From contig CAYYLC010000002.1 of NCBI GenBank assembly GCA_964472415.1, forward strand, positions 96,470-160,469: a DNA stretch of 64,000 nt, written 5' to 3'. Shown here piece after piece: positions 6,373-64,000 of this stretch. Under the pieces are notes generated by a model that saw only the letters and a program-made list of their open reading frames with translations, did no database searches and was not told the origin of the DNA. Source of the stretch: an uncultured Gammaproteobacteria bacterium (lineage in GTDB: Bacteria; Patescibacteriota; Microgenomatia; Levybacterales; GWA1-39-11). The stretch's first letter is position 1. Each line of letters opens with the position of its first letter. A program made the translations under genes and the position numbers.

Positions 6373-7782
6373 TATTTGCTGACTATTTTTCTCCTCTAAA
6401 TTTTCTAGCGACACAATCTTTTTATAATTCTTTTCATCTTTCAGAAATGATCTCAGAATCTTATACACATCAAAATCTGTGAGTACGAGATCGGTATTTT
6501 TCTCACCATTCATAACCTCTTCATATTTTCCCAAATAACACCAATTATTAAAAACCAATCCTTCTGTTGATTCTCCATATTGTTCTCTTATCATAATAGG
6601 CCCGTTAAACGGCCAGGCGGTAAGCTTTGTTTTGGAAAACGCCATAACAAATCGAGCATTATAAATGGCAGGATTTTCTTTTCCTACACATGCTCCTTTA
6701 CACCAACCCAAATGGTAGGAAAAACAAGGACCGGAATTATTACTCATCCCGAGCATTTTCTCGCACAATGTGTAGTCTTTTAAAAGCGTTCGCAGGAGAG
6801 CAGTTGACTGCTTTTGGGATTTGGTTATCGCGAGAACATTTTCGATATTATCCACCTCTATTTCATTCGTAGTTTTTGTGAGAACAGAAAAATATCCATT
6901 CTTTTCAATTTGCTCCATATACGTAAGTCGCCTCGCGTATCTGAGCTTCCTATTATATATAGGCTGCAGTTTTTTAATCAGCTCTGACTCCAAAAGCAGG
7001 GCTCCTAATTCTCCTGATGTTTTAATTGACTCGATCCGTTTTATTTGCTGCGTTATCTCAAGTTCTCGAGAAGACTCGGTGTCGTTACTAAAGTGTGAGA
7101 GGACGCGTTCTTTTATATTCACACTCTTTCCGATATATAACGGGATCTCTCCATCTCCAAAAAACAAATACACTCCAGGCCCTTCAGGAAGTTTTTCAAT
7201 TTCTCCTACTAATAAATGTGGGGGAAGCGAGGGATTTTTGAGAATTTCAGCATATGCATTCTGGATTTTTTCCTCGGATACACTTTCTGGTATTTTTTGC
7301 AGAAAATCCCACACAACTTTTGCGTCATCAAGCGCTCGATGACGCCGTGCACATTCGATTCCAAATCGCTCAATAATATTATCCAGCGAATGTTTTCTAT
7401 ATGTGGGGAAAAGTGTACGAGAAAGTTTTACTGTACATAACTGCTTTGCACGAAACTCTCTATCATGACGTTTAAATTCACTCTTAACAAATGCGTAATC
7501 AAATCGAGAATTATGCGCTACAAATATTGCATCAGACAACATCTCTAAAAGCTCATCTTCAATATCTGAAAATGTAGGCATTGACACTAACTGTCCCGAA
7601 GAAATTCCAGTAAGATTTTCTATAAATGGAGAAATTGCTCCGCCAGGATTCAGAAGTGTTTCAAATGTTTTAACGACACTCCCTTTTTCGATTCGCAATA
7701 CGCCAATTTCAATAATTCGATCAAACGAACTACTTCCACCAGTAGTCTCTATGTCTACAACGGCAAGGTTATTGAGTCGCAT
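6364..7782 (-). CDS. DnaQ-like 3'-5' exonuclease fused to GIY-YIG nuclease domain (Cho/UvrC-homolog-like)
   Basis: Exo motifs VVDIETTG and HNSRFDYAF...ALDDAK, followed by GIY-YIG region GVYLFFGDGEIPLYIGKSVNIKERVLSHF. Confidence 0.7.
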   Translation of the reverse strand: MRLNNLAVVDIETTGGSSSFDRIIEIGVLRIEKGSVVKTFETLLNPGGAISPFIENLTGISSGQLVSMPTFSDIEDELLEMLSDAIFVAHNSRFDYAFVKSEFKRHDREFRAKQLCTVKLSRTLFPTYRKHSLDNIIERFGIECARRHRALDDAKVVWDFLQKIPESVSEEKIQNAYAEILKNPSLPPHLLVGEIEKLPEGPGVYLFFGDGEIPLYIGKSVNIKERVLSHFSNDTESSRELEITQQIKRIESIKTSGELGALLLESELIKKLQPIYNRKLRYARRLTYMEQIEKNGYFSVLTKTTNEIEVDNIENVLAITKSQKQSTALLRTLLKDYTLCEKMLGMSNNSGPCFSYHLGWCKGACVGKENPAIYNARFVMAFSKTKLTAWPFNGPIMIREQYGESTEGLVFNNWCYLGKYEEVMNGEKNTDLVLTDFDVYKILRSFLKDEKNYKKIVSLENLEEKNSQQILL

Positions 7783-8983: not shown

Positions 8984-9073
8984 GGAGGAGTCGCATAGTT
9001 GGCCCATTGCGGGGGATTGCTAATCCCCTGAGTAGCAATACTCGCGCAGGTTCGAATCCTGTCTCCTCCGCCA
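8984..9073 (+). tRNA. tRNA-Ser (anticodon GCU), CCA encoded
   Basis: Cloverleaf by eye: acceptor GGAGGAG/CTCCTCC, 3-bp D stem with long D loop, anticodon stem GGGGA/TCCCC, loop TTGCTAA, long variable arm, T loop TTCGAAT. Confidence 0.8.
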
Positions 9074-9074
9074 C

Positions 9075-9157
9075 GGAGAGGTCGCATAGTGGACTAGTGC
9101 AGCGGTCTTGAAAACCGCCAACCGAAAGGTTCGGGGGTTCGAATCCCCCCCTCTCCG
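9075..9157 (+). tRNA. tRNA-Ser (anticodon UGA)
   Basis: Acceptor GGAGAGG/CCTCTCC, anticodon stem GCGGT/ACCGC, loop CTTGAAA, long variable arm, T arm GGGGG-TTCGAAT-CCCCC. Begins 1 nt after the previous tRNA. Confidence 0.8.
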
Positions 9158-9216
9158 CATATTCTCATAACCTACTTCTCTATTCATCGGTTGCCTGCTG
9201 TGCTATCATTATATAT

Positions 9217-11980: not shown

Positions 11981-12052
11981 GCGTCTGTAGCTCAGGGGTA
12001 GAGCGCCATTCTTATAAAATGGATGTCCTTGGTTCGAATCCAAGCAGACGCA
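11981..12052 (+). tRNA. tRNA-Ile (anticodon UAU)
   Basis: Acceptor GCGTCTG/CAGACGC, D arm TAGCTCAGGGGTAGAGC, anticodon stem CCATT/AATGG with loop CTTATAA (34-36 = TAT), T arm CTTGG-TTCGAAT-CCAAG. Confidence 0.7.
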
Positions 12053-12137
12053 CTTGTGAAACTTGGATACAGTAGGCTTCGAGGGTGACAGATTCAAAGG
12101 TCCACTCTGTTTTTATTCACCTGATATAATCAAGACT

Positions 12138-56408: not shown

Positions 56409-56909
56409 TTATTCCCCGGCTTTTCGGATTGCTTCAAGATCAAGCTTTTTCATTGGCATAAAGGCAGCGGTTACTGCTTCGGTTTTTTCAGGATCGCGCA
56501 TATACTCATCCAAAATTCTTGGTACTACTTGCCACGTGACGCCAAATTTATCTGTGCACCATCCGCACTGCTCCGCTTCAGGAACTGCAGAGAGCTTCTC
56601 CCAGAAGTAGTCAATTTCTTCTTGTGTTTCACATTCAATAATGTAGGATGTTGCGCCATTAAGCTTGAATTGATCAACAGGGCCTCCGTTAAGAGCCATG
56701 AAGCTTATTCCATCGAGTTCGTATTCAGCTGTCAGAATGGACCCCTCAGGTCTGCCAGAAATTTCCTCAGATGCCTTAGGTGATTTTGTTATGTCGCCTA
56801 TTTTTGCGGTGTGATCACCCGGTGCGGAATTGAAAGTATCTATGTAGTAATTTGCTGCTTCTTCACCATCATTGTTTTCAAACCAGATGCAGGTAATTAG
56901 TCTGTTCAT
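56409..56909 (-). CDS. VOC-family protein (PhnB/3-demethylubiquinone-9 3-methyltransferase-like fold)
   Basis: ITCIWFENNDGEEAANYYIDTF...FMALNGGP...GWCTDKFGVTWQV. Confidence 0.55.
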   Translation of the reverse strand: MNRLITCIWFENNDGEEAANYYIDTFNSAPGDHTAKIGDITKSPKASEEISGRPEGSILTAEYELDGISFMALNGGPVDQFKLNGATSYIIECETQEEIDYFWEKLSAVPEAEQCGWCTDKFGVTWQVVPRILDEYMRDPEKTEAVTAAFMPMKKLDLEAIRKAGE

Positions 56910-57080
56910 GTTTTGTTTATTCTAGCACGCCGCAAGATTCTTTTTTGTATTAGTTTTGCAAGAATATTGATAATGGATATTTGCCGTATTTGGTTTGAGT
57001 CCGATTTGCCAGAAGTTCTGTAGCCTGTTCCAGGCTTGTATTGCTTGAGGATCGTGATAGCATAGCCAGCAACGGCTATA

Positions 57081-57440
57081 TTATGAGTTCATTTTGCGAT
57101 GCTCTCTAACTCTAGTCCTGATAACTTTCACAATAATTGACATCGGTAAAAGTTCGCCTAGTGGGAACTGGAGTGTTCCCTTTCCCGATTTATATTTACC
57201 AATTTGTTTTACCGCATCTTCTACTGCTTGAGTAACAGGATAGAGACTAACATGACTTTTATACCCAGCAAAATATACTAAGTATTTTCCATTTAATGTT
57301 GTAGTTGGTATTCCATAGCTAATTTTCTCTTCAACCTCCGGTGCCTCATCTTTAATAGCGTGTCTAATTTCTTTTAGTTTATCCTGAACTTCCTTAGGAA
57401 AACTAGCAATGTATTCATCTACGCTTTTATAAGACTTCAT
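57081..57440 (-). CDS. DUF1801 (YdhG-like) domain protein, second copy
   Basis: VDEYIASFPKEVQDKLKEIRHAIKDEAPEVEEKISYGIPT. Confidence 0.5.
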   Translation of the reverse strand: MKSYKSVDEYIASFPKEVQDKLKEIRHAIKDEAPEVEEKISYGIPTTTLNGKYLVYFAGYKSHVSLYPVTQAVEDAVKQIGKYKSGKGTLQFPLGELLPMSIIVKVIRTRVREHRKMNS

Positions 57441-57646
57441 AGTAATAAGTTGAGTATACCAAGTCGAAATATAGAATGACCAATATTGAAGATTAAGGGA
57501 TATGAGTTGCTATATTAGGTATTGCTCGACTTTGATAAAATCAATTCTACCTTATTTTGCTCCCCCTGATTGATATGTTCAGGAACAGAGAAATAGAGTT
57601 TGGCTTTACTCTGCAAAGCATACAAACGGTCTTTGAAGAACTAAAA

Positions 57647-58423
57647 TTACCCTCCTTGGAATGCGCTTCGTAGTGTTTCTCTATAAGTATCATACTCTGC
57701 CTCAACCTCTTCGTATTCCTTTTGCCATTCTCTGGAGAGATACTTCTTGAATACTTCTCTAAATACAGATAGAAACTTTAAGTAAGCATGAATATAGTAG
57801 TTAATACACCTTTTGAGATTAAGTTCATCTTCAAAATCGCAATAAGTAAAGACAACCTGATTATCAGTTTGCATTCTACCGAACCCGCTAAAAAAGATTG
57901 AACTTTTGAAGCTAGGATGTCTTCCGTATTCGGACATAAGCTCATAGATATTAAAAATGTCTGGGTATACGAGTCTGTCTTCTTCTGGGAACAGTTTTCC
58001 AAGAATACGCCTAAAAGGTTGCGATGTATCTTTCTCAGCCTTTATCCATTCTTCAATCTTTTCTGGGTTAACTGACATTTTACGAGCAGAAGCCACTGCT
58101 TCTGCAGACCTGCTTATAATAGCTGAAGCTTCTGGAATATGGGCTTGGAATATGAGTTGTCCACTTATTAGATAACCTCTAAGACAAGCCCAATACATTT
58201 GAAGTATAGGTGTTAATTCTCTTGGGTATGTATTTAGGTTGTTTGCAAGGTTCTGATACAAGTATAAAATCTTATCTGCATATTTCATTTCTTCAGGATG
58301 GCGGTTTGCTGTAGCTCTAAAGTTATTTATCTCTTCTTCTGAAACAGTTGCGAATTTTTTTGACTTAGGGTTTTTCATAAGGTGTGAATATTCTACCAAA
58401 AATTGATAAAATACGATAAACAA
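57647..58423 (-). CDS. Hypothetical protein
   Basis: 258-aa ORF. No motif. Confidence 0.45.
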   Translation of the reverse strand: MFIVFYQFLVEYSHLMKNPKSKKFATVSEEEINNFRATANRHPEEMKYADKILYLYQNLANNLNTYPRELTPILQMYWACLRGYLISGQLIFQAHIPEASAIISRSAEAVASARKMSVNPEKIEEWIKAEKDTSQPFRRILGKLFPEEDRLVYPDIFNIYELMSEYGRHPSFKSSIFFSGFGRMQTDNQVVFTYCDFEDELNLKRCINYYIHAYLKFLSVFREVFKKYLSREWQKEYEEVEAEYDTYRETLRSAFQGG

Positions 58424-58443
58424 ACATAAGTATTGAAGATGTT

Positions 58444-59523
58444 ATGACATACGAAGAAAAACTTGAACTTATACTGCAGGCATTAAGTGAAGCTCAGAAA
58501 TTCACACGCAAGGGCTATTTCACAAAGCTCTACTTTACTCGTGACAATGGCTTAAAAGATATAAACCTAAATGAAATTCACGATATTCTCTTGAAAATTC
58601 AGGACGAAGAAAAAGTAATAACGGTAAAAGAAATTCCAAGCAAAATTAAGTCTAATCTGGAATTTGATATAGATAAGGTAGAATATTTTTTGATTGATAC
58701 TCCTGAAGAATTTTCCCTTTGGTATGAGGCGCACATTTTTGAAAATATGCACAAAATTGAAAATATGGACTGGATAAACTTGCTTAAAATTTATGATGTT
58801 GCCTTAGATATAAACCAACAGCTTCAAATAGCAGGCTCTAACACAGTTTTTATTCCTTCTTTGCCTCATATGGTCAGGTTTCCTCTCTTGTTTCCTCAGG
58901 ATAGTATCGGAACAAGACGGACTTACCAAGACTATCGTATGGAAGGTGCAGACTTTTTGAGTAAAAGAGGCGGAGTTTTAGAATACAAATACATAGACAG
59001 TATGGACTTTGGGTATGGGGAAGTTAAAATTGTCGTTGACCTAATCAATTTCAGAGATTTTTTATTAAGAATTGGAAACGAGTATAAGAGGAGAAACGAA
59101 AAATACGAGAAGACACAAAAAGAGCCTAAAGTTGAAAAGCCTGTAAAGAAAATGGCAGATAAGCCACCCGAAGAAGAAAAAAAGATAGACACTGTATATG
59201 AGATTTTTTACTCTAAGCAGAGGCAGGTTCTATTAAATAATATAGAAATCGCAAGACCAGATTTTGACAGTGAGAACGAGCTTGTATTCTCTTTTTTAAT
59301 GGATAATTCCAATAAAAAGCATACAAAAGCCGAAATTGAAAAAGCTGTTGGTAAGCCGCTTACCAAAACGCTTCACAAAATCGTTGAAAACCTTGGCTTT
59401 AAGGGCGAAATAAGACAGGCATTTTTTGATGTAAGTAAGGACAGCATATGTTTTAGGAACCCAATAAGAAAAGAAGACTTGGACAAACTAGGAATTACAA
59501 AGCTAAAACTTCCCAAACAATAA
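58444..59523 (+). CDS. Hypothetical protein
   Basis: 359-aa ORF, Lys/Glu-rich linker. No motif. Confidence 0.45.
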   Translation: MTYEEKLELILQALSEAQKFTRKGYFTKLYFTRDNGLKDINLNEIHDILLKIQDEEKVITVKEIPSKIKSNLEFDIDKVEYFLIDTPEEFSLWYEAHIFENMHKIENMDWINLLKIYDVALDINQQLQIAGSNTVFIPSLPHMVRFPLLFPQDSIGTRRTYQDYRMEGADFLSKRGGVLEYKYIDSMDFGYGEVKIVVDLINFRDFLLRIGNEYKRRNEKYEKTQKEPKVEKPVKKMADKPPEEEKKIDTVYEIFYSKQRQVLLNNIEIARPDFDSENELVFSFLMDNSNKKHTKAEIEKAVGKPLTKTLHKIVENLGFKGEIRQAFFDVSKDSICFRNPIRKEDLDKLGITKLKLPKQ

Positions 59524-59604
59524 GTTTATAGGTCTGCGTTCCCTTTTATACCCAACTTATCCTACCACAACGACAGCCTTTTATTGCCGTGCTAACTTTT
59601 TGAC

Positions 59605-59757
59605 ATGGCAAGTAATGAAAAGCTAAAGTCGTTCTTAGAGCAGATGTATGGACACCCCATAAGCGATGACGAATTATCTGAATACAAAGAAAAGATAGTT
59701 AGGATATTTTCCCTACTTATAGAAGTTGATAAGAGAAATAAGAAGAAAAGTAAATGA
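59605..59757 (+). CDS. Putative small protein (51 aa) coupled to SpoVG-like gene
   Basis: ATGGCAAGTAATGAAAAG... ORF whose TGA overlaps the SpoVG-like ATG (ATGA). Under 60 aa so absent from the track. Confidence 0.3.
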   Translation: MASNEKLKSFLEQMYGHPISDDELSEYKEKIVRIFSLLIEVDKRNKKKSK

Positions 59758-60044
59758 AAATATCTGAAGTCCAAATTATTCCTGTTAAACCTCAAGATGG
59801 CTTGGTCGCTTTCGTCAGCTTTGTTCTTGATGAAAGTATTTATCTAGGTTCTATTGCAATTCTCACAAGACGAGAAGGCGGTTATAGGCTCGTATATCCT
59901 ACTAAAAAAGTTGGGTTCAGGAGCATGAATATCTTTCACCCAATAAAGAAAGAATTTGCAAACCTTATTGAAAAGGAGGTCATCAGTAAATTTGAAGATG
60001 TAATGAAAAAATATGATAGATACGATGAAGCTGACGCTAGATAA
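59754..60044 (+). CDS. SpoVG-family protein
   Basis: MKISEVQIIPVKPQDGLVAFVSFVLDESIYLGSIAILTRREGGYRLVYPTKK matches the SpoVG pattern. Confidence 0.6.
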   Translation: MKISEVQIIPVKPQDGLVAFVSFVLDESIYLGSIAILTRREGGYRLVYPTKKVGFRSMNIFHPIKKEFANLIEKEVISKFEDVMKKYDRYDEADAR

Positions 60045-61149
60045 AAATATGTTTTGGATAAAGGACATAGACCGTTTTCAAAAAGAAAGGCAAAATGCCA
60101 CAAGAGGCTATTTTACTTTGGTGCAAAATCCAACTAAATCTGAGCTCAAGAGTGGAATTTATAAGCCACGACTAACCATTACAAAAAGGTTTAATGTTTC
60201 TGGTAGATTTGAGCAAACCTTATCAATTGAGCTCTCGCTTCCCAAACTGCTTTACGGGAATAACTTTGATGAACTCCAAGACAGCGATTTGTCCTTGATT
60301 GTTGATAAACTTAGAGAGGTATTAAAGGAAATGGGCGTAAGGGTTTTTAAAACCATACTTAAATCTGCTCCTATTTCTACGGTTCACTATTCAAAAAATG
60401 TCCCACTTACTAATGGGCTTACCCCGCATTTTCTTATAGGTAAAATCAAAGAGGCAAATATCCCACTTTCCCTTGATATTAACCAGACAGACTACCGTAA
60501 TGACGGACACAGCTATAAATGGCACAGCAATTCCTATGAAGTTGCTTTCTATGACAAAATTAAAGACCTTGAGATGGCTGTGAAAAGTGATAAAAGAGCT
60601 ATTGAGAAAGACAACAGCCCACAGCTTCATCTCTTTCAGGAGCTTAGAATGAGGAAAAAGGAAGTTTTACGCATGGAAGTAAGACTTAATAATAGGCAAA
60701 AGATGAAACAACTTTTTAACAACCTCAAGCTACAAAATGAGTTTACTCTTGAGGGTTTATTTAAGACGGAAATAGCAAAGTGCATACTCCTGCACTATTT
60801 AGACGAGTTAGAAAATCAGCGACCCAAAATGCTTGATTATATTTCAAAAAATCCAAAGTCCCTTTTGGCTGAAATAATTGTGAGTAATCCCAACTTAGGA
60901 ACACTAAAGACAATTCAGGCATTTGGATTAAAACTTGCTCTTGATGCTCTCACGCCCCGTGAATTAAGAGCAATGTTTGGAAAATATCACAAAAGAAGTT
61001 GGTATAGATTATTTGCAGAAGCAAAAACTGTTCAACTCCCAAGTATAAAAAATCCTTTTGAAGTTATGAGGAAAAACCTGATAGACTTTGTGCCACTTAA
61101 ACTAGTTGACTACAATACTAAAATGATAAATAATGATAAATATAATTAG
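60013..61149 (+). CDS. Hypothetical protein, possible replication-initiation/relaxase-like (Rep-like)
   Basis: 378-aa ORF in the mobile-element context. No firm motif. Alternative start at 60025. Confidence 0.35.
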   Translation: MIDTMKLTLDKNMFWIKDIDRFQKERQNATRGYFTLVQNPTKSELKSGIYKPRLTITKRFNVSGRFEQTLSIELSLPKLLYGNNFDELQDSDLSLIVDKLREVLKEMGVRVFKTILKSAPISTVHYSKNVPLTNGLTPHFLIGKIKEANIPLSLDINQTDYRNDGHSYKWHSNSYEVAFYDKIKDLEMAVKSDKRAIEKDNSPQLHLFQELRMRKKEVLRMEVRLNNRQKMKQLFNNLKLQNEFTLEGLFKTEIAKCILLHYLDELENQRPKMLDYISKNPKSLLAEIIVSNPNLGTLKTIQAFGLKLALDALTPRELRAMFGKYHKRSWYRLFAEAKTVQLPSIKNPFEVMRKNLIDFVPLKLVDYNTKMINNDKYN

Positions 61150-61150
61150 T

Positions 61151-61327
61151 ATGTCAGGAGAGCAATATTACTCTATTGAAGAAGTTGCAGAAACCCTAAA
61201 GGTCGCATATTTAACTGTTTATCGCTGGGTTCAATCAGATAAGTTAATTTCTCATAAGGCAGGAAAGCAATATAGAATTAAAAAATCGGATTTAGACAGT
61301 TTTTTAACAGTTTATAAACGAAAATAG
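61151..61327 (+). CDS. Small helix-turn-helix DNA-binding protein (excisionase/Xis-like)
   Basis: YSIEEVAETLKVAYLTVYRWVQSDKLISHKAGKQYRIKKSDL, a MerR/Xis-type HTH. Start set at the Met just after the upstream stop. Confidence 0.5.
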   Translation: MSGEQYYSIEEVAETLKVAYLTVYRWVQSDKLISHKAGKQYRIKKSDLDSFLTVYKRK

Positions 61328-61328
61328 C

Positions 61329-62129
61329 ATGGATAACGATTTAAAAATACCAGTTGAGCAAAAAGATTACGATGAGTGCTCTACTCTTGTAAGAAGAGAG
61401 ATAAGCGAAATTATTAAAACATGTATAGATAAAGGAGAAAACAAAATCTTCATTCATACAAACTTAAAAAGAGGGCTACCGCTTGAAAATATCAATAAGG
61501 TAGCAGGTCCTTTCGTAGAAGCATGGGCTGTAGAAAAGTTTGAAGCAATTGCAGATGACCCGAATAACAAATATAAATTAATTAATGTAGAGCCAGGCGT
61601 AAGACTTGCTCCATATGATATTATCTTGCAATTCAAAAAGAAAAGAGATGGTGCTTCTGATATTGCAACTGCCAATGTGGATGTAAAAGCAACATCTGAT
61701 GATATACCTACTTCAGGTCGTAGTCCAAATATTACATCATACGGAAGAATAAGGACAGAGTATGTTAATGACCCCGATTATATATTTATAATTCTTTCTC
61801 TAAAGCATAAGGTTTATGGCGAAAGAGATGAAAAAACCGCCATGACAAACGGAATAATGGAGGTTACTTCGTATTCTGTTTATGACCTGAAATATGTAGG
61901 AGAAAGGGATATAAGCTACAATCCAGCACTAGGAACTGGTCAGTTGCAGATTAGAGATATTCACTATGTTACTGAAATAAAACGAACAACATGGGAATTT
62001 TGCCAAATGCTTGATAAAAAATATATTAATTCAAAAGGACAAGAGCCTTGGAAGAGGCTGGCAGTGTTACATGGTTGGTTGAAAGGAACAGAGCCAAAAA
62101 TTGAAGTTGCAGCAGAAGAAGTAGTATGA
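61329..62129 (+). CDS. Putative type II restriction endonuclease (PD-(D/E)xK)
   Basis: APYDIIL ... ANVDVKAT fits PD-x(n)-(D/E)xK. Overlaps the downstream methyltransferase by 4 nt. Confidence 0.45.
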   Translation: MDNDLKIPVEQKDYDECSTLVRREISEIIKTCIDKGENKIFIHTNLKRGLPLENINKVAGPFVEAWAVEKFEAIADDPNNKYKLINVEPGVRLAPYDIILQFKKKRDGASDIATANVDVKATSDDIPTSGRSPNITSYGRIRTEYVNDPDYIFIILSLKHKVYGERDEKTAMTNGIMEVTSYSVYDLKYVGERDISYNPALGTGQLQIRDIHYVTEIKRTTWEFCQMLDKKYINSKGQEPWKRLAVLHGWLKGTEPKIEVAAEEVV

Positions 62130-62926
62130 AAACAAACATATTCATATGTGAAGATGCATTAGCGCAAATGAGAAAGTTGCCAAGTGAGTCAGTAGATTTG
62201 GTAGCTACCGACCCACCTTATAACTTAGGCAAAGACTATGGGAACTCCATTGACTATAAAGAATGGCATGATTATCAGTTATTTACAGAACAGTGGCTAA
62301 CAGAAGCTATTAGGTTATTGAAGCCTAATGGAAGCATTTATATTTTCATGGGTGTTAGGTTTATCTCTAAGCTATTTACTTTACTTGAAGAAAAAGGGCT
62401 ACTCTTTAATGGTTGGATTACATGGCATTACACGCAAGGAATGGGAAGAAAAAAAGGATTTTCTCCTAGGCATGAAGATGTTCTATATTTTACGAAATCT
62501 TCCAATTTTACTTTTAATCTAGATAATGTAAGAGTTCCTCAAAAATATTTTAGGAAAAGAAACAATATGGCTGGAGCTAATCCAGGCGATGTATGGCAAT
62601 TCTCCCATGTGCATTATTCAAATCCTGAAAGGCAACCACATCCAACTCAAAAGCCACTTGCTGTAATGGAAAGGATTATTAAGGCTAGCTCAAATGAAAA
62701 TGATGTTGTGCTTGACCCATTTGTTGGGAGTGGAACGACTTGCGTAGCTGCAAATGCTCTGAAAAGAAAGTGGATAGGTATTGATACTAACCCAGATTAC
62801 ATTAAGATGTCAGAAAAAAGAGTAAAGGCTAAATATGAACTAGACTCATTTGACCCAAGAGAAGCAAGAGTGCCTAAAGATATAAAGGGGTTGGAAAAGC
62901 AAGTAAATTCTCTTCTTGAATTATGA
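62126..62926 (+). CDS. DNA N6-adenine/N4-cytosine methyltransferase (beta class, DPPY)
   Basis: Motif IV LVATDPPYNLG near the N-terminus, motif I VVLDPFVGSGTT near the C-terminus. Confidence 0.8.
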   Translation: MKTNIFICEDALAQMRKLPSESVDLVATDPPYNLGKDYGNSIDYKEWHDYQLFTEQWLTEAIRLLKPNGSIYIFMGVRFISKLFTLLEEKGLLFNGWITWHYTQGMGRKKGFSPRHEDVLYFTKSSNFTFNLDNVRVPQKYFRKRNNMAGANPGDVWQFSHVHYSNPERQPHPTQKPLAVMERIIKASSNENDVVLDPFVGSGTTCVAANALKRKWIGIDTNPDYIKMSEKRVKAKYELDSFDPREARVPKDIKGLEKQVNSLLEL

Positions 62927-64000
62927 AGACGATAGTAATCGCTAGGGTAAGCACGGAAGAACAAAAAGAAGCGGGAAACTCGCTACCCGCTCAAATAGCC
63001 CGTCTCAAAAAATATTCTCAAAATAACGGTTTTGAAATCATTAAAGAAGTGAGTTTTGATGAAAGTGCATATAAAACAAAGAGAAACGATTTTGACAATA
63101 TTCTTGATTTTATTCTTGGACAAAAGGAAAAAATAGCGGTCTGTTTTGACAAGGTAGATAGGTTATCACGCAACATCTTTGATAAAAGAATAGCTGACCT
63201 CTATGATATGGCTTTGAAAGATGAAATTGAATTGCATTTTGTATCAGATGGTCAGGTTATAAATAGTCATTTGTCAGCAGTAGAAAAATTTAACTTCAGC
63301 ATAAGTCTTGGGCTTGCAAAATACTATTCAGATGCAATAAGCGACAATGTGAAGCGAGCTCAGGAGCAAATGCTAAGAAGCGGAATATATCCCACTAAGC
63401 CTTCATTTGGCTACAAAAGAGTTCCTGTAAGTAAAGATAAAACTGAAATAGTTGTAGATGAATATGCTTCTCGCATTATTCAAAAGGCTTATGAGTTATA
63501 CGCAACAGGTAGTTTTTCAATGGATTTACTGCGAAAGAAATTCAAAGAAGACTATGGCGTTAATTGGTCACATGGCTGGACAGATAAAATCCTCAAAGAC
63601 CATTTCTATTATGGTGTTATGACTTGGAATAAAAAACAATATCCGCATAAATACGAGCCTATTATTTCAAAGGCACTCTTTGACCAAGTTCAACAAATAA
63701 AGGCGGGTTTTAATAAGAAAAGGTTCAAATATGCGGGCTTACCCTACATATACCGTGGGTTGCTAAGGTGTGGGCAATGCGGCCTCTCTATAACGCCAGA
63801 AAAGCAAAAGGGGCATGTGTATTACCACTGCACTCAATATAAGGGTAAACACGGTGCGGAATGGCTACGAGAGGAAGAAATTACTAACCAGATAGGAAAT
63901 GTTTTTAAGAACCTACAGCTTCCTGAAGAAGTCCTAGGGCAAATCGTTGAAGCATTAAGCACCACTCATCAGAGCAAGATGGAATTTCAAAATAAGCAGT
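62923..64000 (+). CDS. Large serine recombinase (partial, continues beyond window)
   Basis: IVIARVSTEEQ catalytic Ser region, resolvase domain, recombinase domain, zinc ribbon CGQCG...C. Confidence 0.8.
   Translation, partial: MKTIVIARVSTEEQKEAGNSLPAQIARLKKYSQNNGFEIIKEVSFDESAYKTKRNDFDNILDFILGQKEKIAVCFDKVDRLSRNIFDKRIADLYDMALKDEIELHFVSDGQVINSHLSAVEKFNFSISLGLAKYYSDAISDNVKRAQEQMLRSGIYPTKPSFGYKRVPVSKDKTEIVVDEYASRIIQKAYELYATGSFSMDLLRKKFKEDYGVNWSHGWTDKILKDHFYYGVMTWNKKQYPHKYEPIISKALFDQVQQIKAGFNKKRFKYAGLPYIYRGLLRCGQCGLSITPEKQKGHVYYHCTQYKGKHGAEWLREEEITNQIGNVFKNLQLPEEVLGQIVEALSTTHQSKMEFQNKQ

Follow-up and report, generated by a model that had tools for sequence, protein, structure and literature searches.

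A probable ~6.8-kb integrative element at the 3′ end of tRNA-Asn(GTT) in a Microgenomates/Levybacteria-like bacterium, with a serine recombinase gene that extends over its own attachment site

The window (the whole 64,000-nucleotide (nt) stretch of contig CAYYLC010000002.1 that was analysed) contains most of what is probably a ~6.8-kb site-specific integrative element in the 3′ end of a tRNA-Asn(GTT) gene of a candidate phyla radiation (CPR) bacterium (Microgenomates/Levybacteria-like). A probability of about 80% is assigned to this reading, which comprises the layout of the element, its membership of a family, a large serine recombinase (LSR) gene that is split by integration, and a replication cycle that depends on an initiator resembling inovirus G2P. 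As an LSR-driven integrative element it is of a known kind; its gene set, its hosts, its tRNA-end target (re-programmed several times) and a recombinase gene that spans its own attachment (att) site are new in combination. A preliminary description of this DNA had placed an integrative element with a recombinase at its edge at 59605–64000. The element and the edge position of the recombinase stand, and the element proves to be bounded by att sites, one of them in a tRNA 3′ end, but it starts ~2 kb earlier, at attL (57557–57566), and includes two more genes. The window holds its left ~6.4 kb.

Element boundaries and attachment sites

The ends of the element and the recombinase gene are located as follows.

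57557–57566, no strand assigned: attL core, TTGCTCCCCC, a 10-bp identity with attR; predicted crossover TC at 57561–57562
Window-equivalent 64370–64379 (9790–9799 of contig L001), in tRNA-Asn, a minus-strand gene: attR core, the same 10-mer, forming the final bases of the tRNA
62923–64000 (window edge), plus strand: LSR gene, first 359 of 493 codons inside the window
57560–57673, plus strand: detached 3′ end of the LSR gene and P′ arm of attP, 37 codons from the crossover (LPLIDMFRNREIEFGFTLQSIQTVFEELKLPSLECAS) and a stop codon

The LSR gene runs off the window end, as had been noted, and three LSR domains are present in one polypeptide (Resolvase PF00239, 4.3e-18; Recombinase PF07508, 1.9e-11; Zn_ribbon_recom PF13408, 2.3e-7), which also matches the phrog_95 integrase (1.7e-61). 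Extension of the contig, which had been proposed as a check, completes the gene and reveals attR in tRNA-Asn. The public contig L001 (9,844 bp), obtained by exact-protein look-up, matches the window without a single difference over 9,420 bp and reaches 424 bp past it, into the 3′ half of the tRNA. The full LSR on L001 is 493 amino acids (aa) long and its gene ends at window-equivalent 64404, inside tRNA-Asn; the last codons of this integrated copy (...CCCTTGCTCCCCCGCGTGGATTCGAACCACGAACCTTGA) are the reverse complement of the T-arm and acceptor end of the tRNA. A second contig, L074, shows the full end of the LSR open reading frame (ORF) and a complete tRNA-Asn(GTT) at 1462–1534 on the minus strand, into which the LSR ORF extends with its last 34 nt; the next gene is a host DUF378 gene. 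Because the LSR ends within a complete tRNA-Asn gene, the right end of the element is placed ~370 bp beyond the window, at the tRNA-Asn 3′ end. The tRNA gene is left intact by the insertion.

Only 10 bp of the tRNA end recur in the window, and no longer stretch of it turned up when the window was scanned with a 30-mer of the 3′ end at ≤3 mismatches; so short a shared stretch is expected because the enzyme is a serine recombinase. The 10-mer match alone is not significant, as about ten are expected by chance in the window, and generic searches for the longest direct repeat in related loci were swamped by chance 8–9-mers. Only the conserved left end of the element, and not repeat searches, reveals the boundary. 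To the right of the attL 10-mer lies the left end of the same element as conserved in 10 loci (GCTCCCC[CT]T.GT..AC..TT....AAC.GAGA.AT.GAG...). A left-end profile hidden Markov model (HMM) built without the window (leave-one-out) has a single match in the window, at 57560 (E 2.6e-18; next best E 2.2), and an HMM of the left-end peptide matches ~55 of 66 loci. The site is intergenic, with a DUF1801 gene on one side and the minus-strand ORF 57647–58423 on the other. The positions of attL and attR therefore delimit an element from 57557 to window-equivalent 64379, or ~6.8 kb. Its GC content is 0.33–0.37, versus ~0.40 for the window, and no Rfam match was obtained in 56900–64000. The suggested search for repeats flanking the recombinase is thus answered by a 10-bp direct identity, TTGCTCCCCC, at both ends, and the earlier statement that att sites were not identifiable within the window is superseded, since attL lies inside it and the other site 370 bp past its end.

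The organization of attP was derived from 27 elements, in each of which the element-side arm of attR was joined to the element-side arm of attL. The consensus, ..GAT.GTCAAC..TGG-[6 nt]-CT.GT.GAC.ATTCAGGAAC, contains an inverted repeat, GTCAAC-N14-GTTGAC, with the bases that match the tRNA at its centre. At the six variable positions, the sequence is that of the acceptor end of the tRNA targeted (CTCCCC for Asn, CGG... for Asp, TGTG... for Arg, CTG... for Gln and CGTC... for Glu). The centre of the dyad lies two bases after TGGC and always within the 6–10-bp block of identity between attP and the tRNA, from which the crossover dinucleotide in the window is inferred to be TC at 57561–57562. The serine integrases of phiC31, Bxb1 and A118 use short dyad sites with a small central identity. 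Judged from their sequence, the att sites of the present element appear to be of this type, being short and dyad-symmetric with few shared bases around a central dinucleotide.

Division of the recombinase gene by integration

When the LSR ORF is joined at the shared core to the detached end at attL, the reading frame continues (...DYQPLLP, then LIDMFRNREIEFGFTLQSIQTVFEELKLPSLECAS and a stop codon) and encodes 520 aa instead of 493 aa. The same in-frame reconstruction works in nine of 10 loci and yields proteins of 509–520 aa. Integration swaps the last 36 codons of the LSR for nine tRNA-antisense codons (RVDSNHEP here), and most LSR homologues in databases, with lengths of 485–499 aa, end in tRNA-antisense codons.

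Over 27 codons of the detached tail in nine elements, pairwise differences at codon positions 1, 2 and 3 number 176, 103 and 337, and ~50% of differing codon pairs are synonymous in the LSR frame versus 3–37% in the other five frames. This pattern indicates protein-level purifying selection on the tail. No conserved start codon was found upstream of the tail in the integrated state; with its conserved protein frame, the tail is consistently translatable only as the LSR end on an excised circle. Selection on a tail that is translated only from the circle would imply recent cycling through a circular form. The long form of LSR does exist on circles, as shown by a 12,648-bp molecule known from three circularly permuted assemblies (L071, whose ends overlap by 141 bp, L072 and L073; sources ENA, Logan and JGI), which encodes an intact LSR of 516 aa (64% identical) ending in ...PLVDAFRNGKVEFTISLSHIQSTF....

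In the closest relative (L036; LSR 85% identical), the attL region at 7690–7720 reads CTCTCCGTAGTTGAC instead of CTCCCCCTAGTTGAC, a 2-nt defect that puts the detached LSR tail out of frame. L036 is possibly a decayed or immobilised copy.

The arrangement recalls the "suicidal" SSV-type integrases, which a review of archaeal tyrosine recombinases describes as having att inside the int gene and as exclusive to archaea (PMC8371274). In both cases att lies inside the recombinase gene, integration splits that gene, and the module is compact and directed at tRNA genes. Unlike the archaeal integrases, whose genes are inactivated on integration, however, the enzyme here is a serine and not a tyrosine recombinase, its hosts are bacterial, and only the last 36 codons are detached, so that the integrated copy keeps all catalytic and DNA-binding domains. 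By this comparison, the element may be regarded as a partial, serine-recombinase, bacterial analogue of the suicidal integrases. A second parallel is mycobacteriophage BPs, in which attP lies inside the repressor gene and integration removes a 33-residue tail with an ssrA-like degradation tag (PMC4557955). As in BPs, integration alters the C-terminus of an element-encoded protein and creates free and integrated isoforms; BPs, however, has a tyrosine integrase and the protein affected is its repressor, whereas here the serine recombinase itself is affected.

An LSR gene that crosses its own att site, with the detached tail still subject to selection on its protein sequence, is a new arrangement for serine recombinases, and suggests a simple way of making distinct recombinase isoforms in the free and integrated states. 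It is conceivable, albeit rather doubtful, that the exchange of C-terminal tails is a built-in state sensor, in which the circle-only 520-aa and the chromosome-only 493-aa forms would differ in stability or directionality and the tail would be a degron or an intramolecular directionality module. Control of recombinase stability or directionality by the tail, as in the BPs repressor, is a hypothesis only. If true, it would be the first bacterial serine-recombinase counterpart of suicidal integrases and integration-dependent immunity, and would operate in a hitherto undescribed family of integrative replicons, retargetable among tRNAs, by which defence genes are carried through CPR bacteria and Dependentiae.

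Element family and gene content

The element recurs, with attL, two accessory genes, a 50-aa ORF, SpoVG, the 378-aa core protein (p378), HTH_17, a cargo slot, the LSR and attR in the tRNA, in dozens of CPR genomes. The p378 protein has 1,204 homologues in a collection of 5.8 billion proteins (the best 120 at 59–74% identity), and also 1,235 cluster representatives at 50% identity, and none of these homologues or representatives carries a Pfam domain or an informative name. From species-representative genomes, 66 loci were fetched and their gene order was determined by tblastn. They belong to Levy-, Woese-, Roizman- and Pacebacteria and other CPR, Dependentiae/Babeliales, and a few other metagenome-assembled genomes (MAGs). 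The order in CPR is fixed: the 359-aa gene and the 50-aa gene (both facultative), SpoVG, p378, the helix-turn-helix (HTH) gene, a variable region and the LSR. It is simpler in Dependentiae (p378, variable region, LSR). The distance from p378 to the LSR ranges from 108 to 8,447 bp, and the variable slot contains 112 ORFs with mainly defence or addiction functions: components of Type I, II and IIG restriction–modification (R-M) systems, C5 methylase with Vsr, GmrSD and HNH nucleases, and HigBA-like toxin–antitoxin (TA) pairs.

LSR homologues (up to 85% identity) occupy the same position in 49 loci. In 35 of these loci, all of which have p378 followed by a complete LSR, the LSR 3′ end overlaps the 3′ end of a minus-strand tRNA gene. 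The targets among the 35 are tRNA-Asn (14), tRNA-Asp (nine), tRNA-Arg (five), tRNA-Gln (four) and tRNA-Glu (three); the target differs by lineage, yet is always the CCA/acceptor end of a tRNA. Both ends were found in 38 loci, with element sizes of 4.3–13.4 kb. One Dependentiae-type MAG (CAWBEW010000001/2) contains three copies (L029, L030 and L068), at tRNA-Asp, tRNA-Arg(TCT) and tRNA-Glu, the third of which has frameshifted p378 and LSR genes. The gene order is accordingly not a core-genome arrangement shared by all relatives, as tRNAs, cargo, flanks and phyla differ and single MAGs hold multiple copies, and the recombinase is not an isolated invertase but a full LSR abutting an att site. The pattern is that of a mobile element with a cargo slot. 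No published description of the family was found in full-text literature searches, the coverage of which is incomplete, so that an earlier description may exist.

Eight loci (L006, L007, L009, L010, L020 and L024, at ~5.2–7.8 kb in each, and also L016 and L048) have a second recombinase gene immediately to the left of attL. Its product is 22–33% identical to the element LSR, and its frame continues into the detached tail, giving ORFs of ~540–600 aa. The arm of this recombinase differs from the GTCAAC arm of the family, and the core, TGGCTCCCC, is identical. Two different element families seem to have accumulated in tandem at a single tRNA-Asn. In addition, contig L075 (GCA_964458085.1), whose DUF1801 gene is the closest relative (71% identity) of the left-flank gene of the window, carries at 50–918 a SpoVG gene, a small ORF and a truncated 130-aa neighbour, ~7 kb from the DUF1801 gene and on the opposite strand, and may hold another copy of the element family.

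In the window, the genes between attL and the LSR are as follows.

57647–58423, minus strand: 258-aa ORF (243 aa from the ATG of the public gene call), a left-end accessory gene
58444–59523, plus strand: 359-aa ORF, a semi-conserved gene in the left part of the element
59605–59757, plus strand: 50-aa ORF, a small conserved protein
59754–60044, plus strand: SpoVG-fold protein, 96 aa (PF04026, E 2.3e-10)
60013–61149, plus strand: p378, probably a nickase that initiates rolling-circle replication and a distant relative of inovirus G2P/gene II
61133–61327, plus strand: HTH_17/excisionase-family protein, 58–64 aa (PF12728, 1.6e-13; TIGR01764, 4.9e-15; phrog_66 excisionase, 6e-8)
61329–62129, plus strand: predicted Type II restriction endonuclease, 266 aa, cargo (PADLOC REase_II PDLC03492, E 1.5e-90, residues 4–237 of 266)
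62126–62926, plus strand: predicted Type II N6-adenine (DPPY, beta-class) DNA methyltransferase, cargo (PF01555, N6_N4_Mtase, 4.6e-66; PADLOC MTase_II, 8.4e-84)

The seven co-oriented plus-strand ORFs that had been described at 59605–64000 are all present. They are tightly packed, with adjacent genes overlapping or 1–4 nt apart, and therefore have an operon-like layout. The 258-, 359- and 50-aa ORFs have no family match in Pfam, PHROGs, NCBIfam or PADLOC (hereafter, the four databases). Homologues of the 258-aa protein (74–75% identity) lie directly beside attL in L015 and L016, and those of the 359-aa protein (36–53% identity) lie upstream of SpoVG in L003, L007, L009, L010, L012–L014, L019 and L049. 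The 50-aa protein is hydrophilic and is encoded at the same position in L003, L004, L006, L009 and L010 (tblastn, 46–57% identity).

The 96-aa product scores 40.9 bits against PF04026 (gathering cut-off, 29.6 bits) and is far under the NCBIfam equivalog cut-off (32.5 versus 108 bits), which points to a SpoVG-fold protein rather than a SpoVG orthologue. Its gene overlaps the start of the p378 gene by 32 nt and is directly upstream of p378 in ~30 loci (tblastn). It is a core gene of the CPR branch, and its product may be a nucleic-acid-binding accessory protein or a regulator. The HTH gene always comes next after p378 in CPR loci, regardless of cargo. The earlier identification of its product as Xis-like agrees with its matches to PF12728, the TIGR01764 excisionase-family domain and phrog_66, and the protein is a candidate recombination directionality factor (RDF) or regulator. 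It also matches the MAD1 HTH component of MADS, a methylation-associated defence system (NCBIfam NF047737, 4.6e-13, below cut-off; PADLOC mad1, 7.7e-7), and mad2 is matched by eleven ORFs in the cargo of related elements; all this probably reflects generic HTH and methyltransferase similarity.

The cargo of the present copy is an R-M pair, as had been proposed. PDLC03492 is a REBASE-derived model of Type II restriction enzymes, and its match, together with that of MTase_II, supports a real pair. The restriction enzyme has no Pfam match and displays a PD...(D/E)xK-like motif (PYD...VDVK). Its gene overlaps that of the methyltransferase by 4 nt, and the two adjacent genes form a predicted Type II R-M system.

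The 378-aa protein, the proposed cycle and alternative readings

Several lines of evidence suggest a replication function for p378, in line with the preliminary description. The Pfam family Phage_CRI (PF05144, the N-terminal part of G2P) matches eight of 67 diverse p378 homologues (best E 5.9e-7). The better of two structural models (AlphaFold2 with 67 diverse sequences) has a pLDDT of 90 and a pTM of 0.89. When this model is compared with the predicted viral structures of BFVD, the top six matches have E values of 1.1e-8 to 7.2e-6 and prob 1.0, with TM 0.44–0.51 for those at E 1.1e-8 to 4.2e-6; the matches are mostly of similar length (303–468 aa), and one is annotated as "Replication-associated protein G2P [Inoviridae sp.]". 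Invariant in the p378 family are Y180-D181-K182, of which the tyrosine is a candidate catalytic residue, and R220-x-E222-x-R224. Like inovirus gene II proteins and the initiators of rolling-circle plasmids, p378 combines fold-level similarity (BFVD, E 1e-8 to 4e-7) with similar length (355–382 aa) and the Y-x-K plus R-x-E-x-R pattern. Unlike G2P, it has no direct HMM match and resides in an element lacking virion genes, and relatives were not found in GenBank phages, PLSDB plasmids or IMG/VR. On fold and transitive HMM evidence, p378 is likely to be a distant G2P-type rolling-circle initiator, an assignment that is remote. Pf3 ORF301, considered as a possible G2P relative, proved to be a P-loop protein with no bearing on this comparison.

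A serine integrase alone integrates, and excision needs a directionality factor. In the proposed cycle, excision by the LSR, in which the HTH_17 protein probably serves as directionality factor, would release the element in circular form. By nicking an origin, the G2P-like protein would drive rolling-circle replication of this molecule, for which the SpoVG-fold protein may be an accessory that binds nucleic acids. The circle would give rise to full-length LSR, and this enzyme would insert the circle at a tRNA end in a new host. Host defence, and stabilisation of the element through post-segregational killing, may be provided by the R-M cargo. Natural transformation or hitch-hiking as the route between cells is a guess, because no conjugation or virion genes were found in the element in scans of the four databases.

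A number of observations weigh against this cycle and against the reading of which it is part. For the p378 of the window, no direct match was found in the four databases (in Pfam, none even at E ≤ 10), and Foldseek comparison of the pLDDT 90 model with PDB gave no match. Alignment of p378 with IKe gpII by hhalign is colinear but weak (prob 10%), with EVLRMEVRLN paired with GLVRFEARLH. Upstream of SpoVG, no significant local repeat, hairpin or conserved non-coding motif that could mark an origin or nick site was found; promoter and terminator scans were near background. The roles given to the HTH_17 and SpoVG-like proteins are guesses. Comparison with an empty site in relatives, as had been advised, was unproductive: exact-pattern scans of metagenome contigs gave no match to the empty site (attB, containing ...CCTTATTTTGCTCCCCCGCGTGGATTCG...) or the circular junction (attP, containing ...TATCAACCCTTGCTCCCCCTGATTGATATG...) of this element, and the closest long contig found through the left-flank DUF1801 protein (71% identity) is not syntenic. 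The only proven circle, the 12,648-bp molecule described above, pairs its related LSR with another kind of replication module (a Toprim/DUF3987 primase), and carries two ankyrin-repeat genes and no p378 homologue. L069 (6,948 bp, with SpoVG, p378 and a 522-aa LSR) was considered as a further circle; its circularity is unsupported because the merged protein encoded by the ORF across its ends is a DUF4238/HXXEE chimera.

The failure to find an empty site or circle for this copy would also fit a fixed, non-mobile genomic island, in which the recombinase and Rep proteins are decaying or domesticated and the R-M system is the sole working part. Decay of this kind is seen in some relatives, with frameshifted p378 or LSR genes in L032, L039, L053, L063, L065 and L068 and the 2-nt attL defect in L036. 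In the copy of the window, however, none of the ten ORFs is disrupted, attL and attR are whole and share a perfect 10-bp core, and the detached end of the LSR gene is undamaged and keeps its reading frame, purifying selection on it implying recent circular cycling. A fixed island is accordingly considered improbable.

A comparably low probability is given to p378 as a mobilisation relaxase, similar to the Rep_trans-type MOB_T proteins of streptococcal integrative and conjugative elements (ICEs) and integrative mobilizable elements (IMEs), which would make the element an IME that borrows a conjugative pore. Relaxases share their chemistry with rolling-circle initiators, "replication/relaxase" was the function first proposed for this ORF, and a low-confidence model (20 sequences, pLDDT 72) had the Rep_trans protein 4cwe_A as its top PDB hit (prob 0.98). 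That hit vanished with the pLDDT 90 model, and the advised HMM check for Rep_trans and Rep_3 was essentially negative, with no match for the window protein, one of 67 family members matching Rep_trans (PF02486) at E 0.13, and no match to Rep_3. Pfam, PHROG and NCBIfam scans of the element revealed no coupling protein or type IV secretion gene, and conjugation systems are not known to have been described in CPR bacteria or Dependentiae.

Least probable of all is a cryptic or defective filamentous (inovirus-like) prophage with a G2P-like initiator, an LSR as integrase and diverged structural or morphogenesis genes among the unassigned ORFs: it would account for the G2P-like fold, the Phage_CRI matches in family members and the size of 6.8 kb, which is typical of inoviruses, and inoviruses reportedly integrate by tyrosine, serine or DDE recombinases, but the ten ORFs include no pI/Zot-type morphogenesis ATPase or coat-like small membrane protein in the four databases, the 50-aa ORF is hydrophilic, GenBank phages and IMG/VR viral contigs contain no p378 relative, and the variable slot holds R-M and TA cargo rather than structural genes.

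The closest known counterparts of the element are serine-integrase prophages, LSR islands and IMEs (phiC31, Bxb1 and A118; SCCmec Ccr; streptococcal IMEs), with which it shares an LSR of Resolvase, Recombinase and Zn-ribbon domains, short dyad attP and attB sites with few shared bases at a 2-bp crossover (here a predicted one), a small DNA-binding candidate RDF, a recombinase gene at the very edge of the element, and accessory cargo. Unlike these systems, it combines a G2P-like Rep with a SpoVG-fold protein and has no phage or conjugation genes, its hosts are CPR bacteria and Dependentiae, its tRNA CCA/acceptor target is re-programmed between lineages, and the LSR coding sequence runs through attP.

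CPR bacteria (Patescibacteria) and Dependentiae are large, mostly uncultured, symbiotic groups in which mobile elements are barely charted and genetics is very hard. The element family is abundant, as more than 2,000 related recombinases were found and its Rep proteins form over 1,200 clusters at 50% identity, and it seems to serve as a principal carrier of R-M and other defence genes in these groups. The natural series of tRNA retargeting offers material for studying how serine-integrase specificity changes, and the LSR, the predicted 50-bp attP and the tRNA attB would be ready parts for integration vectors in these organisms.

Elsewhere in the window, a tRNA-Ile gene at 11981–12053 has the anticodon TAT (UAU), an uncommon bacterial way to read AUA, and two adjacent tRNA-Ser genes (GCT and TGA) at 8984–9158 are 1 nt apart.

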